Below are positions 27,203-32,944 of a stretch of DNA of 64,000 bases, piece by piece. Position numbers and translations under genes: made by a program. The notes beneath the pieces are model-generated. The model had not been told where the DNA came from, did no database searches, and saw only the letters and a list, made by a program, of their open reading frames with translations. The stretch's first letter is position 1, and each line of letters starts with the position of its first letter. The stretch covers positions 28,225-92,224 of the forward strand of contig CAVEPD010000003.1 of assembly GCA_963617535.1 (NCBI GenBank), written 5' to 3'. This DNA comes from a bacterium (lineage in GTDB: Bacteria > Bacillota_I > Bacilli_A > RFN20 > CAG-826).

Positions 27203-28326
27203 AAGTGATGATCGGACTTAGCGGTGGGGTCGACAGCGCGGTCGCCGCATATCTATTGAAAGAACAGGGCTACGAGGTCGTCGCGGGCTTCATGAGGAAC
27301 TGGGATGCGCTCGCGAATAACGATTATTTGGGCAACCCCACGATCAACGCCAATCAGTGCCCTCAGGAGAAAGACTACCAAGACGCGAAGAAAGTCGCCG
27401 AGAAACTGGGGATCCCTTTGCTTCGAGCGGACTTCGTGAAGGAATATTGGGATTCCGTTTTCACCTATTTCCTGAACGAATACAAGAAGGGAAGAACCCC
27501 CAATCCCGACGTTTTCTGCAACAAGTACATCAAGTTCGATTCGTTTCTGAAGTTCGCGAAATCTCAGGGTTGCGACGCTATCGCGATGGGCCACTACGCG
27601 AAGAAAGAATCCTTCGAAGGCAAGGAATACATCTATAAGGCCTTCGACAAAAACAAGGACCAGTCCTACTTTTTGTCCCAAATCAATGAATCCCAGATCG
27701 CTAGCTGCATCTTCCCTTTAGGGGGGATCACCAAGCCTCAGGTTAGAGAGATCGCCCATCGTTTGGACCTCGAGTCCGTGATGGACAAGAAAGACTCGAC
27801 TGGCGTGTGCTTCATCGGAGAAAGGGACTTCAGGAAGTTCCTTCAGAATTATCTTCCTGCAAAGAAGGGCAAGATAGTCGAAGGCAAAACAGGCAAAGTG
27901 GTAGGCGAGCATTGCGGGGTTCTCTATTACACGATCGGCCAGCATAAAGGCTTAGGGATAGGTGGCATCGCCGGAGAGAAAGAAGGCGCCTTCTTCATCT
28001 ACAAGAAAGATGCTTCCAACAACATTCTTTACGTTGCGAAAAGCGACGATGAGGAATTGCTTTTGAGCACTTCCTGCCGCCTTGATAACATCAACTGGGT
28101 TGGCGAAAGGCCAACCGAACCCATTCACGTCGGAGTGAAGTTCCGCTATCGTCAGCCAGACCAGTTCTGCACCTTACGTTTTGAAGGTGACGAAGTTATT
28201 TTGACCTATGATTCCCCCGTCAAAGCGGTGACCCCCGGCCAAATCGGCGTCTTCTATGACGGCGAGAGGATGCTTGGGGGAGGCATCATCTCCGCGGTGT
28301 ATCGCGGAGATGAGAGAATCGATTGA
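27199..28326 (+). CDS. mnmA: tRNA 2-thiouridine(34) synthase
   Basis: GLSGGVDSAV PP-loop, NPDVFCNKYIKF and DSTGVCFIGE motifs. 375 aa. Confidence 0.93.
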   Translation: MKVMIGLSGGVDSAVAAYLLKEQGYEVVAGFMRNWDALANNDYLGNPTINANQCPQEKDYQDAKKVAEKLGIPLLRADFVKEYWDSVFTYFLNEYKKGRTPNPDVFCNKYIKFDSFLKFAKSQGCDAIAMGHYAKKESFEGKEYIYKAFDKNKDQSYFLSQINESQIASCIFPLGGITKPQVREIAHRLDLESVMDKKDSTGVCFIGERDFRKFLQNYLPAKKGKIVEGKTGKVVGEHCGVLYYTIGQHKGLGIGGIAGEKEGAFFIYKKDASNNILYVAKSDDEELLLSTSCRLDNINWVGERPTEPIHVGVKFRYRQPDQFCTLRFEGDEVILTYDSPVKAVTPGQIGVFYDGERMLGGGIISAVYRGDERID

Positions 28327-28362: not shown

Positions 28363-28908
28363 CTAAAAAGGCAAGTCTTCTTCAAATTGGGCTTCTTCCG
28401 CTTCGTCCAGTCTTTGTAGTTGCTTTGCCGCGGCATTCAAGATGTTCTTTTTAACTATTTCGGCATCAGGGTAATCCCCTGATTTGGCGTTGAATCTTTC
28501 CAATTCGAAATAAAGGTCTTTCAACGCTTTCGCATGTTTGGAAACGACTAGGTAGGCCCCTTCTACATAGCCACTTTCTCTTCGATTGAAATAGCCGCGC
28601 ATTTCAAAAATTCCATATTCTATTAAAGCGGCGAAACAATTAACCATTGCCTCTGGCTTGCTGTGAGCGGTTGCGACGGGGCGCATTGAAGAAGGCCCGT
28701 AATAAAGGCTATCAAGAGTGATGCCTAATCCTTCCGCAATTCGCGCCAGAGTGATTGTGTTAGGTATTTTTCTTCCGTTTTCGTATTCGGAAAGCTGACT
28801 TTTGCTCATCTCGATTTTACTTGCGAAACCGGACTTGGACAGCCCTAGATTTTCCCGGCATCTTTGGATATTAGATCCTATTCTTTTGCCAACGTCGTCT
28901 TCGTTCAT
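28363..28908 (-). CDS. XRE-family HTH transcriptional regulator with an uncharacterised C-terminal domain of about 110 aa
   Basis: LGLSKSGFASKIEMSKSQLSEYENGRKIPNTITLARIAEGLGITLDSLY is a canonical HTH_3/XRE segment. ACGGAGG SD. The gene is AT-richer than the flanks. Confidence 0.85.
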   Translation of the reverse strand: MNEDDVGKRIGSNIQRCRENLGLSKSGFASKIEMSKSQLSEYENGRKIPNTITLARIAEGLGITLDSLYYGPSSMRPVATAHSKPEAMVNCFAALIEYGIFEMRGYFNRRESGYVEGAYLVVSKHAKALKDLYFELERFNAKSGDYPDAEIVKKNILNAAAKQLQRLDEAEEAQFEEDLPF

Positions 28909-29096
28909 GGATAACCTCCGTTTTACTTTAAGTATTATCCATACCGAACCCCTTGTTTCCTAATGAGAGAACGGAATTTTTTATAAATAAGCAAAAAAGT
29001 ATCGATACAGTGCTGTTTATTTTTTTATAAAATATAAATAACCATCCCGAAAATTCGCTTGGACAACAGGCCAAAAGAAAGGAGTTTGTATTTTGC

Positions 29097-29366
29097 TTAT
29101 TTTGAAACAAGGAAATCTACCCATTCCTCAAAAGTGAACTGCACCTTGCTCATTCCCTTAACGAAGATGTCCAAATAGCCTTTTAGATATTCTTTTTCCT
29201 GCTCTGTGTCGAAGGTCTCTTGAGGATAGTTGTCTTTCAAAAGCCAAAGAGTCATGATCCACATGGCTTTTTCTTTTTCGCTAAGCGACTTGGACGACTC
29301 GAAACTTTCATTCCCAAATTCTTTGGTGATGTTGTTCCTATATTTTTCTGCTATGTCAATTTTCAT
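29097..29366 (-). CDS. 89-aa acidic protein, candidate immunity/antitoxin partner (copy 1)
   Basis: Start overlaps the upstream ART-like gene stop by 11 nt. Glu/Asp/Lys-rich, no TM segment or signal peptide. An identical second copy lies at 30264-30533. Confidence 0.7.
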   Translation of the reverse strand: MKIDIAEKYRNNITKEFGNESFESSKSLSEKEKAMWIMTLWLLKDNYPQETFDTEQEKEYLKGYLDIFVKGMSKVQFTFEEWVDFLVSK

Positions 29367-30033
29367 GGTTTTTGTTTCCTAAGATTTTAACTTTGATGCG
29401 TTTGAATTTTAATCCATTCCAAACGCAATTCGTGATTTCTTCGATTTGGTAGAGAGGAGCCGTTATAAGTATTTCTTTTTCTGAGGCGTTATTTGAAATT
29501 CCCTCTATAGGGAGAGCGTTATAACCCTTTGGAAGTTTACAACAAAACACTATGCCTACCTCGTCTTCGCTTCTAGTCTTCGCGGCGCTCACAGCTCTTA
29601 AATAGGTTCGGCTCGTGGAACATATCAAAGAGCCCTCTGTAGGGAGGTCGAGCAAAAATCTGAGCAAGAAATTCTTTTCATAAACTTCTCGCGGTACGGT
29701 TATTCCGCGATAAGAGAGGACGGAGGATTTCAATTTGTGCTTTGAAATAGCTGAGATGAGACAATCTTTGAGTTTTTCGTCGGATTTCGACATTCTGTTT
29801 TCTCTGATCGCCTTGTTTAAAGCTTTTCCGATTCGAATATCTGTGTATTGATTGACTGAACTGAATTCTTCTTTGGAAAGAACGCTGAGCAACTCGCTCT
29901 TTGAACAGGATTCTGAGGCTAAGTAGTCGCTCGCTGTATCGTCTTTTGCGTATTGACCGCTTCTTTCGCCATTTCCTTTCGGGACGTAAGATTGCAGCTT
30001 GTTCCCGCCGCCTTTTTTTAAGCTGTCAGCCAT
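29356..30033 (-). CDS. ADP-ribosyltransferase-like protein (R-S-E class, C3/VIP2/iota-like signature), copy 1
   Basis: 225 aa from ATG 30033, with AAAGGAGGTG SD 7 nt upstream. Carries NQYTDIRIGKALNKAIRE (YTxxxxxxxxNxxxR helix), SYRG (R109), CSTS (S139-T-S) and SEKE (E185-x-E187, nt 29481-29473). No signal peptide or trafficking domain. Confidence 0.75.
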   Translation of the reverse strand: MADSLKKGGGNKLQSYVPKGNGERSGQYAKDDTASDYLASESCSKSELLSVLSKEEFSSVNQYTDIRIGKALNKAIRENRMSKSDEKLKDCLISAISKHKLKSSVLSYRGITVPREVYEKNFLLRFLLDLPTEGSLICSTSRTYLRAVSAAKTRSEDEVGIVFCCKLPKGYNALPIEGISNNASEKEILITAPLYQIEEITNCVWNGLKFKRIKVKILGNKNHEN

Positions 30034-30263
30034 TGGAACCACCTCCTTTAGGGTGCTTGAGATTTGCTACGATCACATTCTAAAAAAAGGAAAAATTTCG
30101 ATGTAGTCACGAGAATATCGAATTGCAATTCGCTATTTTGGTTCAGTTTTCGGAAATGTGGTTTCACTATTTGGCGAAGTGGTTCGCAACTGCTGAACAA
30201 CCGTTTATGATGCGTTCCCCAAACATTGGACAAAAGGCCAAAAGGAAGGAGTTTGTATTTTGC

Positions 30264-30533
30264 TTATTTTGAAACAAGGAAATCTACCCATTCCTCAAAA
30301 GTGAACTGCACCTTGCTCATTCCCTTAACGAAGATGTCCAAATAGCCTTTTAGATATTCTTTTTCCTGCTCTGTGTCGAAGGTCTCTTGAGGATAGTTGT
30401 CTTTCAAAAGCCAAAGAGTCATGATCCACATGGCTTTTTCTTTTTCGCTAAGCGACTTGGACGACTCGAAACTTTCATTCCCAAATTCTTTGGTGATGTT
30501 GTTCCTATATTTTTCTGCTATGTCAATTTTCAT
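30264..30533 (-). CDS. 89-aa acidic protein, candidate immunity/antitoxin partner (copy 2)
   Basis: Protein identical to copy 1. Same 11-nt overlap with the upstream gene. Confidence 0.7.
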   Translation of the reverse strand: MKIDIAEKYRNNITKEFGNESFESSKSLSEKEKAMWIMTLWLLKDNYPQETFDTEQEKEYLKGYLDIFVKGMSKVQFTFEEWVDFLVSK

Positions 30534-31200
30534 GGTTTTTGTTTCCTAAGATTTTAACTTTGATGCGTTTGAATTTTAATCCATTCCAAACGCAATTCGT
30601 GATTTCTTCGATTTGGTAGAGAGGAGCCGTTATAAGTATTTCTTTTTCTGAGGCGTTATTTGAAATTCCCTCTATAGGGAGAGCGTTATAACCCTTTGGA
30701 AGTTTACAACAAAACACTATGCCTACCTCGTCTTCGCTTCTAGTCTTCGCGGCGCTCACAGCTCTTAAATAGGTTCGGCTCGTGGAACATATCAAAGAGC
30801 CCTCTGTAGGGAGGTCGAGCAAAAATCTGAGCAAGAAATTCTTTTCATAAACTTCTCGCGGTACGGTTATTCCGCGATAAGAGAGGACGGAGGATTTCAA
30901 TTTGTGCTTTGAAATAGCTGAGATGAGACAATCTTTGAGTTTTTCGTCGGATTTCGACATTCTGTTTTCTCTGATCGCCTTGTTTAAAGCTTTTCCGATT
31001 CGAATATCTGTGTATTGATTGACTGAACTGAATTCTTCTTTGGAAAGAACGCTGAGCAACTCGCTCTTTGAACAGGATTCTGAGGCTAAGTAGTCGCTCG
31101 CTGTATCGTCTTTTGCGTATTGACCGCTTCTTTCGCCATTTCCTTTCGGGACGTAAGATTGCAGCTTGTTCCCGCCGCCTTTTTTTAAGCTGTCAGCCAT
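30523..31200 (-). CDS. ADP-ribosyltransferase-like protein, copy 2
   Basis: Protein identical to copy 1. Same SD and ATG context. Confidence 0.75.
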   Translation of the reverse strand: MADSLKKGGGNKLQSYVPKGNGERSGQYAKDDTASDYLASESCSKSELLSVLSKEEFSSVNQYTDIRIGKALNKAIRENRMSKSDEKLKDCLISAISKHKLKSSVLSYRGITVPREVYEKNFLLRFLLDLPTEGSLICSTSRTYLRAVSAAKTRSEDEVGIVFCCKLPKGYNALPIEGISNNASEKEILITAPLYQIEEITNCVWNGLKFKRIKVKILGNKNHEN

Positions 31201-31537
31201 TGGAACCACCTCCTTTAGGGTGCTTGAGATTTGCTACGATCACATTCTAAAAAAAGGAAAAATTTCGATGTAGTCACGAGAATATCGAATTGCAATTCGC
31301 TATTTTGGTTCAGTTTTCGGAAATGTGGTTTCACTATTTGGCTAAGTGGTTCGCAACTGCTGAACAACCGTTTATCGAGAAGGTTAATCGATTGTGATAT
31401 GCGTATTTTGGATAACGGGGCGTTTACGATTTAGACAAAGAACCAGTTTGAAATATGTTTGGCTTTTTGGGAACGCGAAAAGCGTTTTCTTTCGACTCGT
31501 TCTTTCTTGGAAGGCCCTTTTGATTTACCATTCTCGC

Positions 31538-32944
31538 ATGGCAAAAAAGAAGACCTCTCCAAGCAAAAGTGGCTTGACCAAAAAACAGAAAAAGGAAATC
31601 GCGAAAGCGGCGAAGAAGAACCCCGTCGCTGCGATTATCATCGTGATTGCGGTGGTGGCAATCGTCGGCGTGGCAGCTTTCTTCCTTTTGAAAAACAAGC
31701 CATGGGAGAGTGGTGGCACTTCTAGCGATTCTCAAACTAGCGTTTCCCTAAGAAGCGAAGAGTCCACATCTGGGCAAGAAGTGGTTTCCTACGTCGAAGG
31801 CGACTGCGACCCCATCTCGATCCATTTTATTGATAGACAAGAGCAATACTCCGGCGACTCGGTATATATCAAAGTAGGGGACAACGATATTTTAATCGAC
31901 GCTGGCGCGAGAAAGGGAAGTGCGAAAGCAATCGAAACATATTTGGAAGATTCCTCTAGAAGCGATTACGTCTCCGATAACAAGCTTGAATACGTGATCA
32001 CCACACACGCCCACCAGGATCACATCGCAGGCATGATGGGAACTTCGAAAACGGGGATTCTCTATCGTTACAAAGTCGACAACCTCATCGATTTCTCTTA
32101 CGTGGACGCTCAGGATGGCAAGAACGTCATCAATAACGCGGATCCTTCGAATTCCAACGACGATTCCCGCTTCGTCTCGTATGAAGGGACCTATACCTCG
32201 GGCTCCAGCAACAAGAGCAATCCCAATTCTACGGGTCTCTATAAAGATTATGTTGAAGCAAGGAACTACGCGATTGAAAAAGGAACCACCTGGCATACCG
32301 CTGGGGAACTTTGCAATTCCTCCACGGATTATTCTTATACCGTCACCCTTGGAAAAGGCGTGACGATGACCCTTCTTTACTCTTTCTTCTATGACCACAC
32401 CTCCGCGGAGATAACCTCCTTGGAAAGTAGCTACAAACGCTCGAACTTCTCGGATCAAAACGATTACTCCGTATGCCTTCTCTTTACCCAGGGGAGCAGA
32501 CATTTCCTTTTCACCGGGGACGCGGAAGCCTATGCCGAGCATAGCCTTGTGAAATACAACAATCTTCCTAATGTCGACCTTTTCAAAGCGGGACACCATG
32601 GCTCTTATACCGCTTCTAGCGATGAGCTTCTTGACGCCGTGGACCCCGATTTATGTGTCGTCACCTGCTGCGCGGGCAACAAGGAGTACGCTAGCGATGC
32701 CAATCACACTTTCCCTGCGCAGGAATTCATTAACCGCATCGCGAAGCACACCGACAGGGTCTACGTGACGACCCTTGGCTCCTTTGAGGACAAGAGCCAT
32801 TACGAGGCTTTCAACGGGAATGTTGTGGTGAGCTACGACCCTTCTTGCGCGGAGACCCTCACTTGCTCGAACAACCAGACGAAGCTAAAAGACAGCGCTT
32901 GGTTCAAGGCAAATCGGACTTGTCCAGAGCAATGGGCCTCCTGA
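31538..32944 (+). CDS. membrane-anchored MBL-fold metallo-hydrolase, ComEC C-terminal-domain-like
   Basis: Lys-rich N-terminus plus one TM segment (VAAIIIVIAVVAIVGVAAFFLL). HAHQDHIAGM (HxHxDH), FTGDAE and KAGHHGS motifs as in the ComEC MBL domain. The ORF-track start at 31394 is rejected. Confidence 0.8.
   Translation: MAKKKTSPSKSGLTKKQKKEIAKAAKKNPVAAIIIVIAVVAIVGVAAFFLLKNKPWESGGTSSDSQTSVSLRSEESTSGQEVVSYVEGDCDPISIHFIDRQEQYSGDSVYIKVGDNDILIDAGARKGSAKAIETYLEDSSRSDYVSDNKLEYVITTHAHQDHIAGMMGTSKTGILYRYKVDNLIDFSYVDAQDGKNVINNADPSNSNDDSRFVSYEGTYTSGSSNKSNPNSTGLYKDYVEARNYAIEKGTTWHTAGELCNSSTDYSYTVTLGKGVTMTLLYSFFYDHTSAEITSLESSYKRSNFSDQNDYSVCLLFTQGSRHFLFTGDAEAYAEHSLVKYNNLPNVDLFKAGHHGSYTASSDELLDAVDPDLCVVTCCAGNKEYASDANHTFPAQEFINRIAKHTDRVYVTTLGSFEDKSHYEAFNGNVVVSYDPSCAETLTCSNNQTKLKDSAWFKANRTCPEQWAS

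Follow-up and report, generated by a model that had tools for sequence, protein, structure and literature searches.

Introduction

MuF polymorphic toxins, among them the MuF–ADP-ribosyltransferase (ART) fusion called ‘EFV toxin’, carry variable toxin domains (ART, metallopeptidase, papain-like, and RNase) and are linked to the portal/MuF module of phage head genes. A small downstream open reading frame (ORF) is often present, and packaging into the head followed by co-injection has been predicted, as set out in two papers (Zhang et al, 2012, PMC3482391; Jamet et al, 2017, PMC5576092). Here, we describe a cassette in a 64,000-nt stretch of a bacterial chromosome (positions 28,225 to 92,224 of contig CAVEPD010000003.1; hereafter the window, with coordinates counted from its first nucleotide). 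The cassette encodes a 225-aa ART (29356-30033, minus strand), an overlapping 89-aa partner, and an XRE-family regulator, and its ART begins with a short peptide, termed the tag below, that also heads unrelated toxins and proteins encoded in phage head modules. We give a probability of about 0.5 to the locus being a polymorphic toxin–immunity cassette with a phage-type targeting tag. As a whole, the system fits best among the polymorphic toxin–immunity systems, as a variant with a logic akin to that of MuF toxins and, as its defining feature, a tag shared between phages and chromosomes. As an enzyme, the ART is an ordinary representative of a well-known family; what makes it interesting is the setting, where a short conserved peptide links chromosomal cassettes of uncultured gut- or rumen-type bacteria with phage head-module effectors.

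The likeness to MuF toxins extends to structure: among viral proteins, the window ART is closest in fold to ARTs fused to MuF or other head-morphogenesis, minor-capsid, or portal proteins, and to Alt-type ARTs. Unlike MuF toxins, however, the window ART has no MuF domain (PF04233 or PF06152), and PF03496 is the only Pfam domain found in it. Its phage relatives encode the toxin separately, close to a short MuF2 gene, and it bears the tag in place of MuF; the MuF–ART fusions that we retrieved have no tag. The window cassette also differs in being chromosomal rather than part of a prophage, and in having an XRE gene. MuF-fused toxins and ARTs encoded next to head genes have been proposed to be packaged and injected, and in the passages that keyword searches located in the papers concerned (PMC3482391, PMC5576092, PMC5512222, PMC9503650) we found no mention of the tag or of XRE-linked chromosomal cassettes.

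Phage T4 provides an analogy for the mechanism that we propose below. From PMC5512222 and general background, the R-S-E ART Alt and the T4 internal proteins are loaded into the head and injected together with the DNA, and a short N-terminal peptide would be enough for head targeting. The T4 capsid-targeting sequence has no sequence similarity to the tag, though, and is cleaved by the prohead protease, whereas no protease gene was recognised in the tag-bearing phage modules. Alt also comes without an immunity gene.

Outside phages, the window ART shares its fold, its R / S-T-S / E-x-E signature, and a Y…N…R helix with C3-like and binary R-S-E ARTs (Plx2A, 5URP; C3bot; VIP2, 1QS2; C2-I; iota Ia; all PF03496). 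It differs from them in lacking a signal peptide, an adaptor, and a B component, and in having a small intracellular partner, an XRE gene, and an unrelated N-terminal tag. Tre1–Tri1 (6DRE) and Listeria Lmo0066 (8ZA7) likewise place an antibacterial R-S-E ART beside a protective gene, and the Lmo0066 ART is among the best fold matches. In those two systems, however, immunity is provided by ADP-ribosylhydrolases (ARHs; the title of 8ZA7 reads ‘ART-ARH type’), while the window partner is an 89-aa protein without a family match, and delivery uses N-terminal domains of type VI or type VII secretion systems, unlike the N-terminal module found here. Tripartite toxin–antitoxin (TA) systems such as omega-epsilon-zeta, and the ART toxins DarT and ParT of TA systems, appear similar in chromosomal location and in their three-gene logic of a toxin, a small neutraliser, and a separate DNA-binding regulator. 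They differ from the window system, which has a tag across unrelated toxins, swapping of toxin and partner, and relatives in phage head modules.

Homology and modelling identify a C3/VIP2-type ART

Pfam ADPrib_exo_Tox (PF03496) matched the window ART at 33.1 bits against a gathering cut-off of 23.4, and a search with the single sequence already matched VIP2 and Plx2A among solved structures. The family profile matched VIP2 with E = 4e-11, aligning the motifs YRG, STS, and EKE to VIP2 vyR, STS, and EkE. Counted along the 1qs1_A alignment, R109 corresponds to R349, S139-T-S to S386-388, and E185 and E187 to E426 and E428; the codons lie on the minus strand at 29709-29707 (R109), 29619-29611 (S139-T-S), and 29481-29473 (E185-x-E187). 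A helix with the pattern Y-x(9)-N-x-x-x-R, 5' of the catalytic core, also aligns with VIP2 in the profile alignment. Among 23 family members with identity down to 24%, R109, S139, and E187 never vary, and T140, S141, and E185 hardly ever do.

The ART family is small. A word-indexed search returned 11 proteins, and when 1.84 billion cluster representatives were searched exhaustively with a profile, 21 matched at E <= 1e-30, mostly full-length; beyond these, scores fall sharply to generic ART domains. An AlphaFold2 (AF2) model built from the 23-sequence alignment (m5b3002361406) has a mean predicted local distance difference test (pLDDT) score of 88.9, above 90 in the catalytic region, and a predicted template modelling score (pTM) of 0.77. 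In Foldseek searches, this model matched Plx2A with a template modelling (TM) score of 0.74, a root-mean-square deviation of 3.0 Å, and E = 5e-13, the Lmo0066 ART with a TM score of 0.76, and C3bot with a TM score of ~0.67.

Homology and modelling thus show the 225-aa protein to be a predicted C3/VIP2-type R-S-E mono-ADP-ribosyltransferase whose R / S-T-S / E-x-E NAD+ site is intact; that the three motifs meet in one pocket is read from the VIP2 and fold alignments. An earlier note, written from the DNA sequence alone, had reached much the same view of the enzyme. Its ORF, residue numbers, nucleotide positions, and motif spacings (30 and 46 residues) are all correct. The PF03496 match, the VIP2 profile match, and the Foldseek matches agree with its placement of the protein in the R-S-E clade of C2, C3, iota, and VIP2. 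The signature and the preceding C3-like helix that it had picked out by eye both align with VIP2, and the structure prediction that it proposed as a check gave an ART-like fold that superposes on Plx2A, the Lmo0066 ART, and C3bot. In R-S-E ARTs, E-x-E goes with arginine as the acceptor. By analogy, this suggests arginine as the acceptor of the window ART, and a cytoplasmic bacterial target is plausible.

A conserved N-terminal tag heads unrelated toxins

The same note had regarded the protein as having no delivery domain and only a Gly/Lys/Ser-rich N-terminus. This part of its description has to be revised: in the 23-member alignment, tag residues 1-28 (encoded at 29950-30033, minus strand) match or exceed the catalytic core in conservation, and they form a module found on unrelated toxins and phage head-module effectors. 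The start methionine of the window ART is equivalent to the start methionine of all family members, and the Shine-Dalgarno sequence AGGAGG lies 8 nt ahead of its ATG (30033), in the non-coding region at 30034-30208 on the minus strand. The core of the tag (QSYVPKGNGERSGQY in the window, encoded at 29950-29994) follows the pattern Q-[PN]-[YF]-[IV]-P-[AK]-G-[NH]-G-[DE]-x-S-G-[EQ]-Y across 75 carriers with 45 unique versions; its start falls at residue 11-16 in every one of the 23 aligned family members and in nearly all carriers. With a profile built from just the motif, carriers were matched at E down to 2e-14 among 5.8 billion proteins; these hits were short fragments, and full-length carriers were recovered from contig scans. 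The tag has no model in Pfam, NCBIfam, PHROGs, or PADLOC. We also considered whether it could be a MuF–toxin linker or part of a MuF fusion, and rejected this idea since it is never internal in 160 retrieved proteins, which include MuF– and Phage_min_cap2–ART fusions.

A metagenome scan with the chromosomal tag sub-type identified 16 loci. In chromosomal cassettes, most of them XRE-linked, the tag heads at least four toxin types. Three loci have an ART behind it (L031, L037, L041). In six others with an intact toxin gene (L029, L030, L033, L034, L036, L038), it is followed by a ~148-aa domain with the signature …NSVIKK-x-x-GYVV-ERYY…YLDIDYTCHG…HP-VPH-H-W, for which we obtained no family assignment beyond a weak hint of Ntox24 (E = 0.05). 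The end of this ~148-aa toxin is overlapped by a conserved ORF of ~86 aa that is unrelated to the 89-aa partner (L029, L033, L036, L038); the two are probably an undescribed toxin–immunity pair. The remaining types are DUF4258 (L040; 28.7 bits against a cut-off of 25) and a PBECR1-like domain that matched weakly, under the cut-off, in L043 and is alike by eye in L042, which has no Pfam match. One chromosomal setting other than that of the window has the gene order priA…rlmN-PP2C-kinase-rpe-rpmB; this order, like comEA-comEC-holA-rpsT at the window’s slot, suggests Bacillota as the hosts.

Across these sequences the tag is shown to be modular, separate from the catalytic domain, and common to toxins and phage head-module proteins. 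We infer that it is a targeting peptide.

Phage relatives carry the tag in head modules

In nine IMG/VR viral contigs, a closely related phage sub-type of the tag (MPTKPN-AG-QQNYVPAGNGDASGEY-DN-GSN-HF) heads proteins of 374-550 aa. Their C-termini include Gln_amidase (PF15644), ADPrib_exo_Tox (78.6 bits), and ATLF- or Zn-peptidase-like HExxH domains, and so represent at least three effector types. The genes lie in a head module with the order terminase large subunit, portal, Phage_min_cap2/‘minor head protein’ (MuF2), a variable gene, the tag protein, and two larger ORFs. The size and position of these last two suggest scaffold and major capsid proteins, and neither has a PHROG family match. 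Two further cases extend this picture. One, P0043, is a 225-aa ART with a phage-type tag and the same architecture as the window protein, encoded in a phage structural module, with the head–tail and tape-measure genes after it; the other is a decayed 45-aa tag ORF between the portal and MuF2 genes of L028.

The phage loci differ from the chromosomal cassettes in several ways. They contain no homologue of the 89-aa partner or of the XRE protein, and the ORF that follows the tag protein is conserved at 43-78% identity irrespective of toxin type, which indicates a phage gene rather than a cognate immunity gene. Conversely, neither the window nor its syntenic loci contain phage head genes, and the post-portal location was seen only in the tag-bearing phage relatives. 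An ART contig and a phage contig that are both 34,111 bp long proved to be different contigs. We take these differences to mean that the chromosomal cassettes are a distinct branch that kept a phage-type tag.

As a separate observation, the tag-bearing viral contigs L015, L019, and L028 have GC contents of 0.51-0.53, like the window host (0.51), and the other viral contigs have 0.30-0.35; the former phages could come from the same host group as the window.

A co-varying partner and an XRE regulator accompany the toxin

The earlier note had called the ART stand-alone. We find instead that it overlaps a co-varying partner gene, is linked to a conserved XRE gene, and is tandemly repeated; the overlapping 89-aa genes, the XRE gene, the identical second ART copy, and the conserved N-terminal motif had all gone unnoticed. 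The partner gene (29097-29366, minus strand) overlaps the ART stop by 11 nt, and the two genes are translationally coupled. Between the window and related loci, ART and partner identities move together (82/85, 62/58, and 61/40%) next to flanks at 89-97%, and partner homologues were found behind ART-type toxins only, other toxin types having a small ORF of their own. The pairing also holds in a different, AT-rich chromosome, where an ART with 42% identity to that of the window (P0010) adjoins ymdB, miaB, ylbF, and miaA and keeps both an HTH_3 gene and a 93-aa partner homologue with the core MW-x-MTLWLLKDNYP…YL…FT..W.

The 89-aa protein has no significant match in Pfam or NCBIfam. With this length and no family match, it was rejected as a candidate for ARH-type immunity. 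Its overlap and co-variation with the toxin point to a cognate neutraliser of the ART, which would probably act by binding since the protein is far too small for an ADP-ribosylhydrolase.

The partner ORF also outlasts the toxin. It is intact beside a frameshifted ART in L045 and in P0036, where the catalytic domain has been deleted. The small ORFs of the ~148-aa toxin type are similarly intact beside decayed toxins in L021, L022, L032, and L035, with an identical toxin frameshift on 7 contigs in the case of L021/L022. P0036 is itself unusual: in this 123-aa protein, the ART N-terminus (tag and linker, ~56 aa) is joined straight to a partner-like C-terminus, the catalytic domain having been cleanly deleted.

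The XRE-family helix-turn-helix (HTH) protein (28363-28908, minus strand; 181 aa) has a system-specific C-terminal domain that is conserved between ART-type and non-ART cassettes. Its profile matched a divergent upstream gene at 9 of the 16 metagenome loci with E values between 1e-8 and 1e-69, of which seven are no higher than 1e-43. We infer that it represses the cassette. A search of PADLOC 2.0 gave no model matching the ART or the 89-aa partner and generic HTH matches only for the XRE protein, so that no known anti-phage defence system in that collection could be assigned.

Toxin and partner are exchanged as a unit in a tandem array

Upstream of the first cassette lies a second, distal one, with an ART (30523-31200) whose coding sequence is identical to that of the proximal ART and a partner gene (30264-30533) that again overlaps it by 11 nt, both on the minus strand. 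The two belong to 1,150-bp tandem repeat units, A (29059-30208) and B (30226-31375), each made up of the upstream region, ART, partner, and 38 bp. The upstream non-coding region is accordingly present a second time at 31201-31375. The units differ by three mismatches only (29067, 29078, and 30176), all of them non-coding, and are joined by a 17-nt filler (30209-30225; TGTTTGGGGAACGCATC on the minus strand). The repeat period is 1,167 bp, and the array is followed by the XRE gene.

An independent assembly, L045, has the same repeat period of 1,167 bp. From the distal cassette through the junction and on to about codon 20 of the proximal ART, it has at most one mismatch to the window per 60-nt block, and no mismatch or gap at 30273-30154, which spans the filler. 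The filler is not present in single-copy loci. Together with the exact junction match, it rules against an assembly artefact, and since two independent assemblies share the junction we consider the tandem array real.

After about codon 20 of the proximal ART, nucleotide identity between L045 and the window drops to ~63% until just beyond the partner gene, and the two sequences are then identical again. This pattern indicates that toxin domain and partner moved together as a single module, whose 5' breakpoint lies within the stretch that encodes the conserved N-terminus. It is in L045 that the proximal ART is frameshifted. The identity of the proximal and distal cassettes in the window would be explained either by gene conversion that homogenised the window or by allelic replacement in L045.

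The slot that the cassette occupies, from an MBL-fold gene to mnmA, holds a cassette in eight loci from metagenome-assembled genomes (MAGs), not counting the window’s own contig. Compared with the window, L005-L007 (for L006, its 62%-type cassette) have MnmA, Dtd, and PyNP at 93-97% identity and the MBL-fold protein at 91%, with the ART at 62%, the 89-aa protein at 58%, and the XRE protein at 70-72%. The corresponding values for L008 are 89-92% for MnmA, Dtd, and PyNP, 74% for the MBL-fold protein, 61% for the ART, 40% for the partner, and 47% for the XRE protein. The cassette thus evolves far faster than its surroundings, with ART and partner co-varying.

Diverged cassettes are stacked in L045 and in L006, where one is of the 82% type and one of the 62% type. 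A chimera in the latter locus (P0009, L006:8001-8672) joins the first ~43 XRE residues, in frame, to ART residues from about 50 onwards, across a …SQLSE/EEF… microhomology and with the tag deleted; it points to an ancestral [ART–partner–XRE][ART–partner–XRE] array that then underwent a deletion.

Interpretations of the locus

The reading to which we gave roughly even odds, a polymorphic toxin–immunity cassette with a phage-type targeting tag, accounts for several features at once. One N-terminal tag is joined to ART, ~148-aa, DUF4258, PBECR-like, Gln_amidase, and ATLF/Zn-peptidase-like domains. In the chromosomal cassettes, although not in the phage relatives, a small gene that changes with the toxin lies directly 3'. 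Recombination replaces toxin and partner, extra cassettes occur, and decayed toxins sit beside intact partners. Under this reading, the 225-aa ART would be the toxin, the 89-aa protein would bind and neutralise it, the XRE protein would hold the cassette repressed, and residues 1-28 would be a short targeting tag of phage type. Diversity arises by swapping toxin domain and immunity gene as a unit, through recombination anchored in the tag, and by tandem stacking. Speculatively, the tag would direct the ART to a phage head-assembly component, leading to its loading into virions and co-injection into another cell, where it would modify an essential cytoplasmic protein unless the recipient had the matching immunity protein.

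Several observations weigh against this reading. A toxin with a small neutraliser and an XRE regulator is equally the anatomy of a tripartite TA system. The window sub-type of the tag, and the ART family, were not found in IMG/VR or GenBank phages, the latter giving no match to the window ART or to the tag peptide, and there are no phage genes in the 64-kb window or beside any chromosomal cassette. The phage-borne carriers have no toxin-specific downstream gene and so may be mild host-modifying effectors rather than toxins. In the AF2 model, residues 1-40 have moderate pLDDT values of 64-76 and form short β-strands at 5-7 and 13-16; the tag may instead pack against the ART domain, perhaps in an autoinhibitory or partner-binding role.

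The alternative that survives best is a tripartite TA or abortive-infection module acting in cis, in which the ART would be held by the 89-aa protein as antitoxin under XRE repression, and the tag would serve as a decoy or sensor whose binding by the head-assembly protein of an infecting phage frees or activates the ART, which then kills or arrests the cell. We regard this account as possible but somewhat unlikely. From gene order, the window cassette appears compatible with type II or tripartite TA modules, the succession of toxin, small neutraliser, and HTH regulator being typical of them. The cassettes are chromosomal and sit amid housekeeping genes with no secretion apparatus nearby, and the HTH of the XRE protein weakly resembles MqsA, HipB, and PezA-type antitoxins as well as phage repressors, all under the cut-offs. 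Defence systems often combine a constant module with interchangeable effectors, the phage relationship of the tag is demonstrable, and DUF4258 and Ntox24-like domains are also known from TA systems. Against this, neither ART nor partner has a defence-system model in PADLOC, a tag of ~28 residues is small for a sensor, and intact partners beside independently decayed toxins, together with stacked diverged cassettes, are more typical of immunity to incoming toxins. The earlier note had favoured an intracellular target, either self-poisoning or phage-directed; between self-poisoning or abortive infection and delivery from cell to cell, the swapping, the stacking, and the decayed toxins with intact partners make us lean towards a polymorphic toxin–immunity system.

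A more specific possibility is that the tag is a capsid-loading signal which the SPP1-like head module of some resident or infecting phage also uses for its own effectors, that the chromosomal toxin rides in the virions of this phage, and that the XRE protein is a phage-sensing switch. Capsid loading of the window ART through its tag is speculative, extrapolated from where tagged genes lie in phages, and the full scenario seems to us doubtful. If it were true, the cassette would amount to a minimal ‘phage-vectored’ toxin system acting between bacteria, or to a Trojan-horse device against phages, and would need no secretion apparatus of its own. A tag that acts as a virion-loading signal would provide a handle on how separately encoded proteins enter siphophage-type heads, would extend the MuF toxin idea to split genes, and would mean that bacteria possibly load their own toxins into phage particles. 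Should virion loading prove wrong, the locus still illustrates cleanly, in a natural setting, how toxin and immunity are swapped together with a conserved leader as the anchor.

The cassette could also be a domesticated or decaying phage effector, an addiction-type TA pair left by a prophage whose tag is a functionless relic. The GC content of the cassette block (0.41, against 0.51 for the window), which indicates a foreign origin, would fit such a history, as would the many pseudogenised cassettes and the existence of a phage relative with the same architecture (P0043). Yet the tag is among the most conserved parts of proteins whose ART domains share only 24-40% identity, and it is kept on unrelated toxin domains, arguing for purifying selection on the tag itself. 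Moreover, cassettes occupy the same slot in the eight MAG loci, with flanks differing by up to 10%, so the cassette has been kept over a long period. We consider a relic improbable.

Finally, a secreted C3 or binary-type exotoxin against eukaryotic cells, suggested by the nearest solved structures (Plx2A, C3, VIP2, C2-I, iota Ia, and CDTa), was rejected as very improbable: the hydrophilic N-terminus has no signal peptide or hydrophobic segment, Pfam finds no adaptor domain, no B-component gene is among the neighbours, a dedicated co-varying intracellular partner is present, and sister cassettes carry RNase-type antibacterial domains. The earlier note had also argued against an exotoxin, and its statement that a signal peptide and any LXG, Rhs, CdiA, or phage-head fusion are lacking holds up in the sequence, Pfam, and fold matches, which show no MuF fusion either.

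Chromosomal surroundings

The cassette forms a block of ~3 kb on the minus strand among genes that are nearly all on the plus strand. Its neighbours are housekeeping genes, with dtd and mnmA on one side and the membrane MBL-fold gene, alaS, greA, comEA, comEC, and holA on the other, and the flanking gene order in the syntenic loci includes comEA-comEC-holA-rpsT. A promoter and terminator scan gave no signal exceeding shuffle expectation. Over all 64,000 nt, Rfam gave no family at gathering score, and no tRNA, riboswitch, or T-box was detected, even 5' of alaS. The MAG labels of L007 and L008 (‘Parasutterella excrementihominis’ and ‘Paludibacteraceae bacterium’) look unreliable, as both loci match the housekeeping proteins of the window at 89-97% and have a Bacillota-like gene order.

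The MBL-fold gene (31394-32944, plus strand) is divergent from the cassette and encodes a membrane-anchored protein that resembles the ComEC C-terminal domain; its similarity to the Avs1a and 6A-MBL defence proteins is far under the cut-offs. The protein is 91-99% identical in the closest relatives and 74% in L008, and is absent beside cassettes elsewhere. This distribution indicates that it is probably a core gene outside the system.

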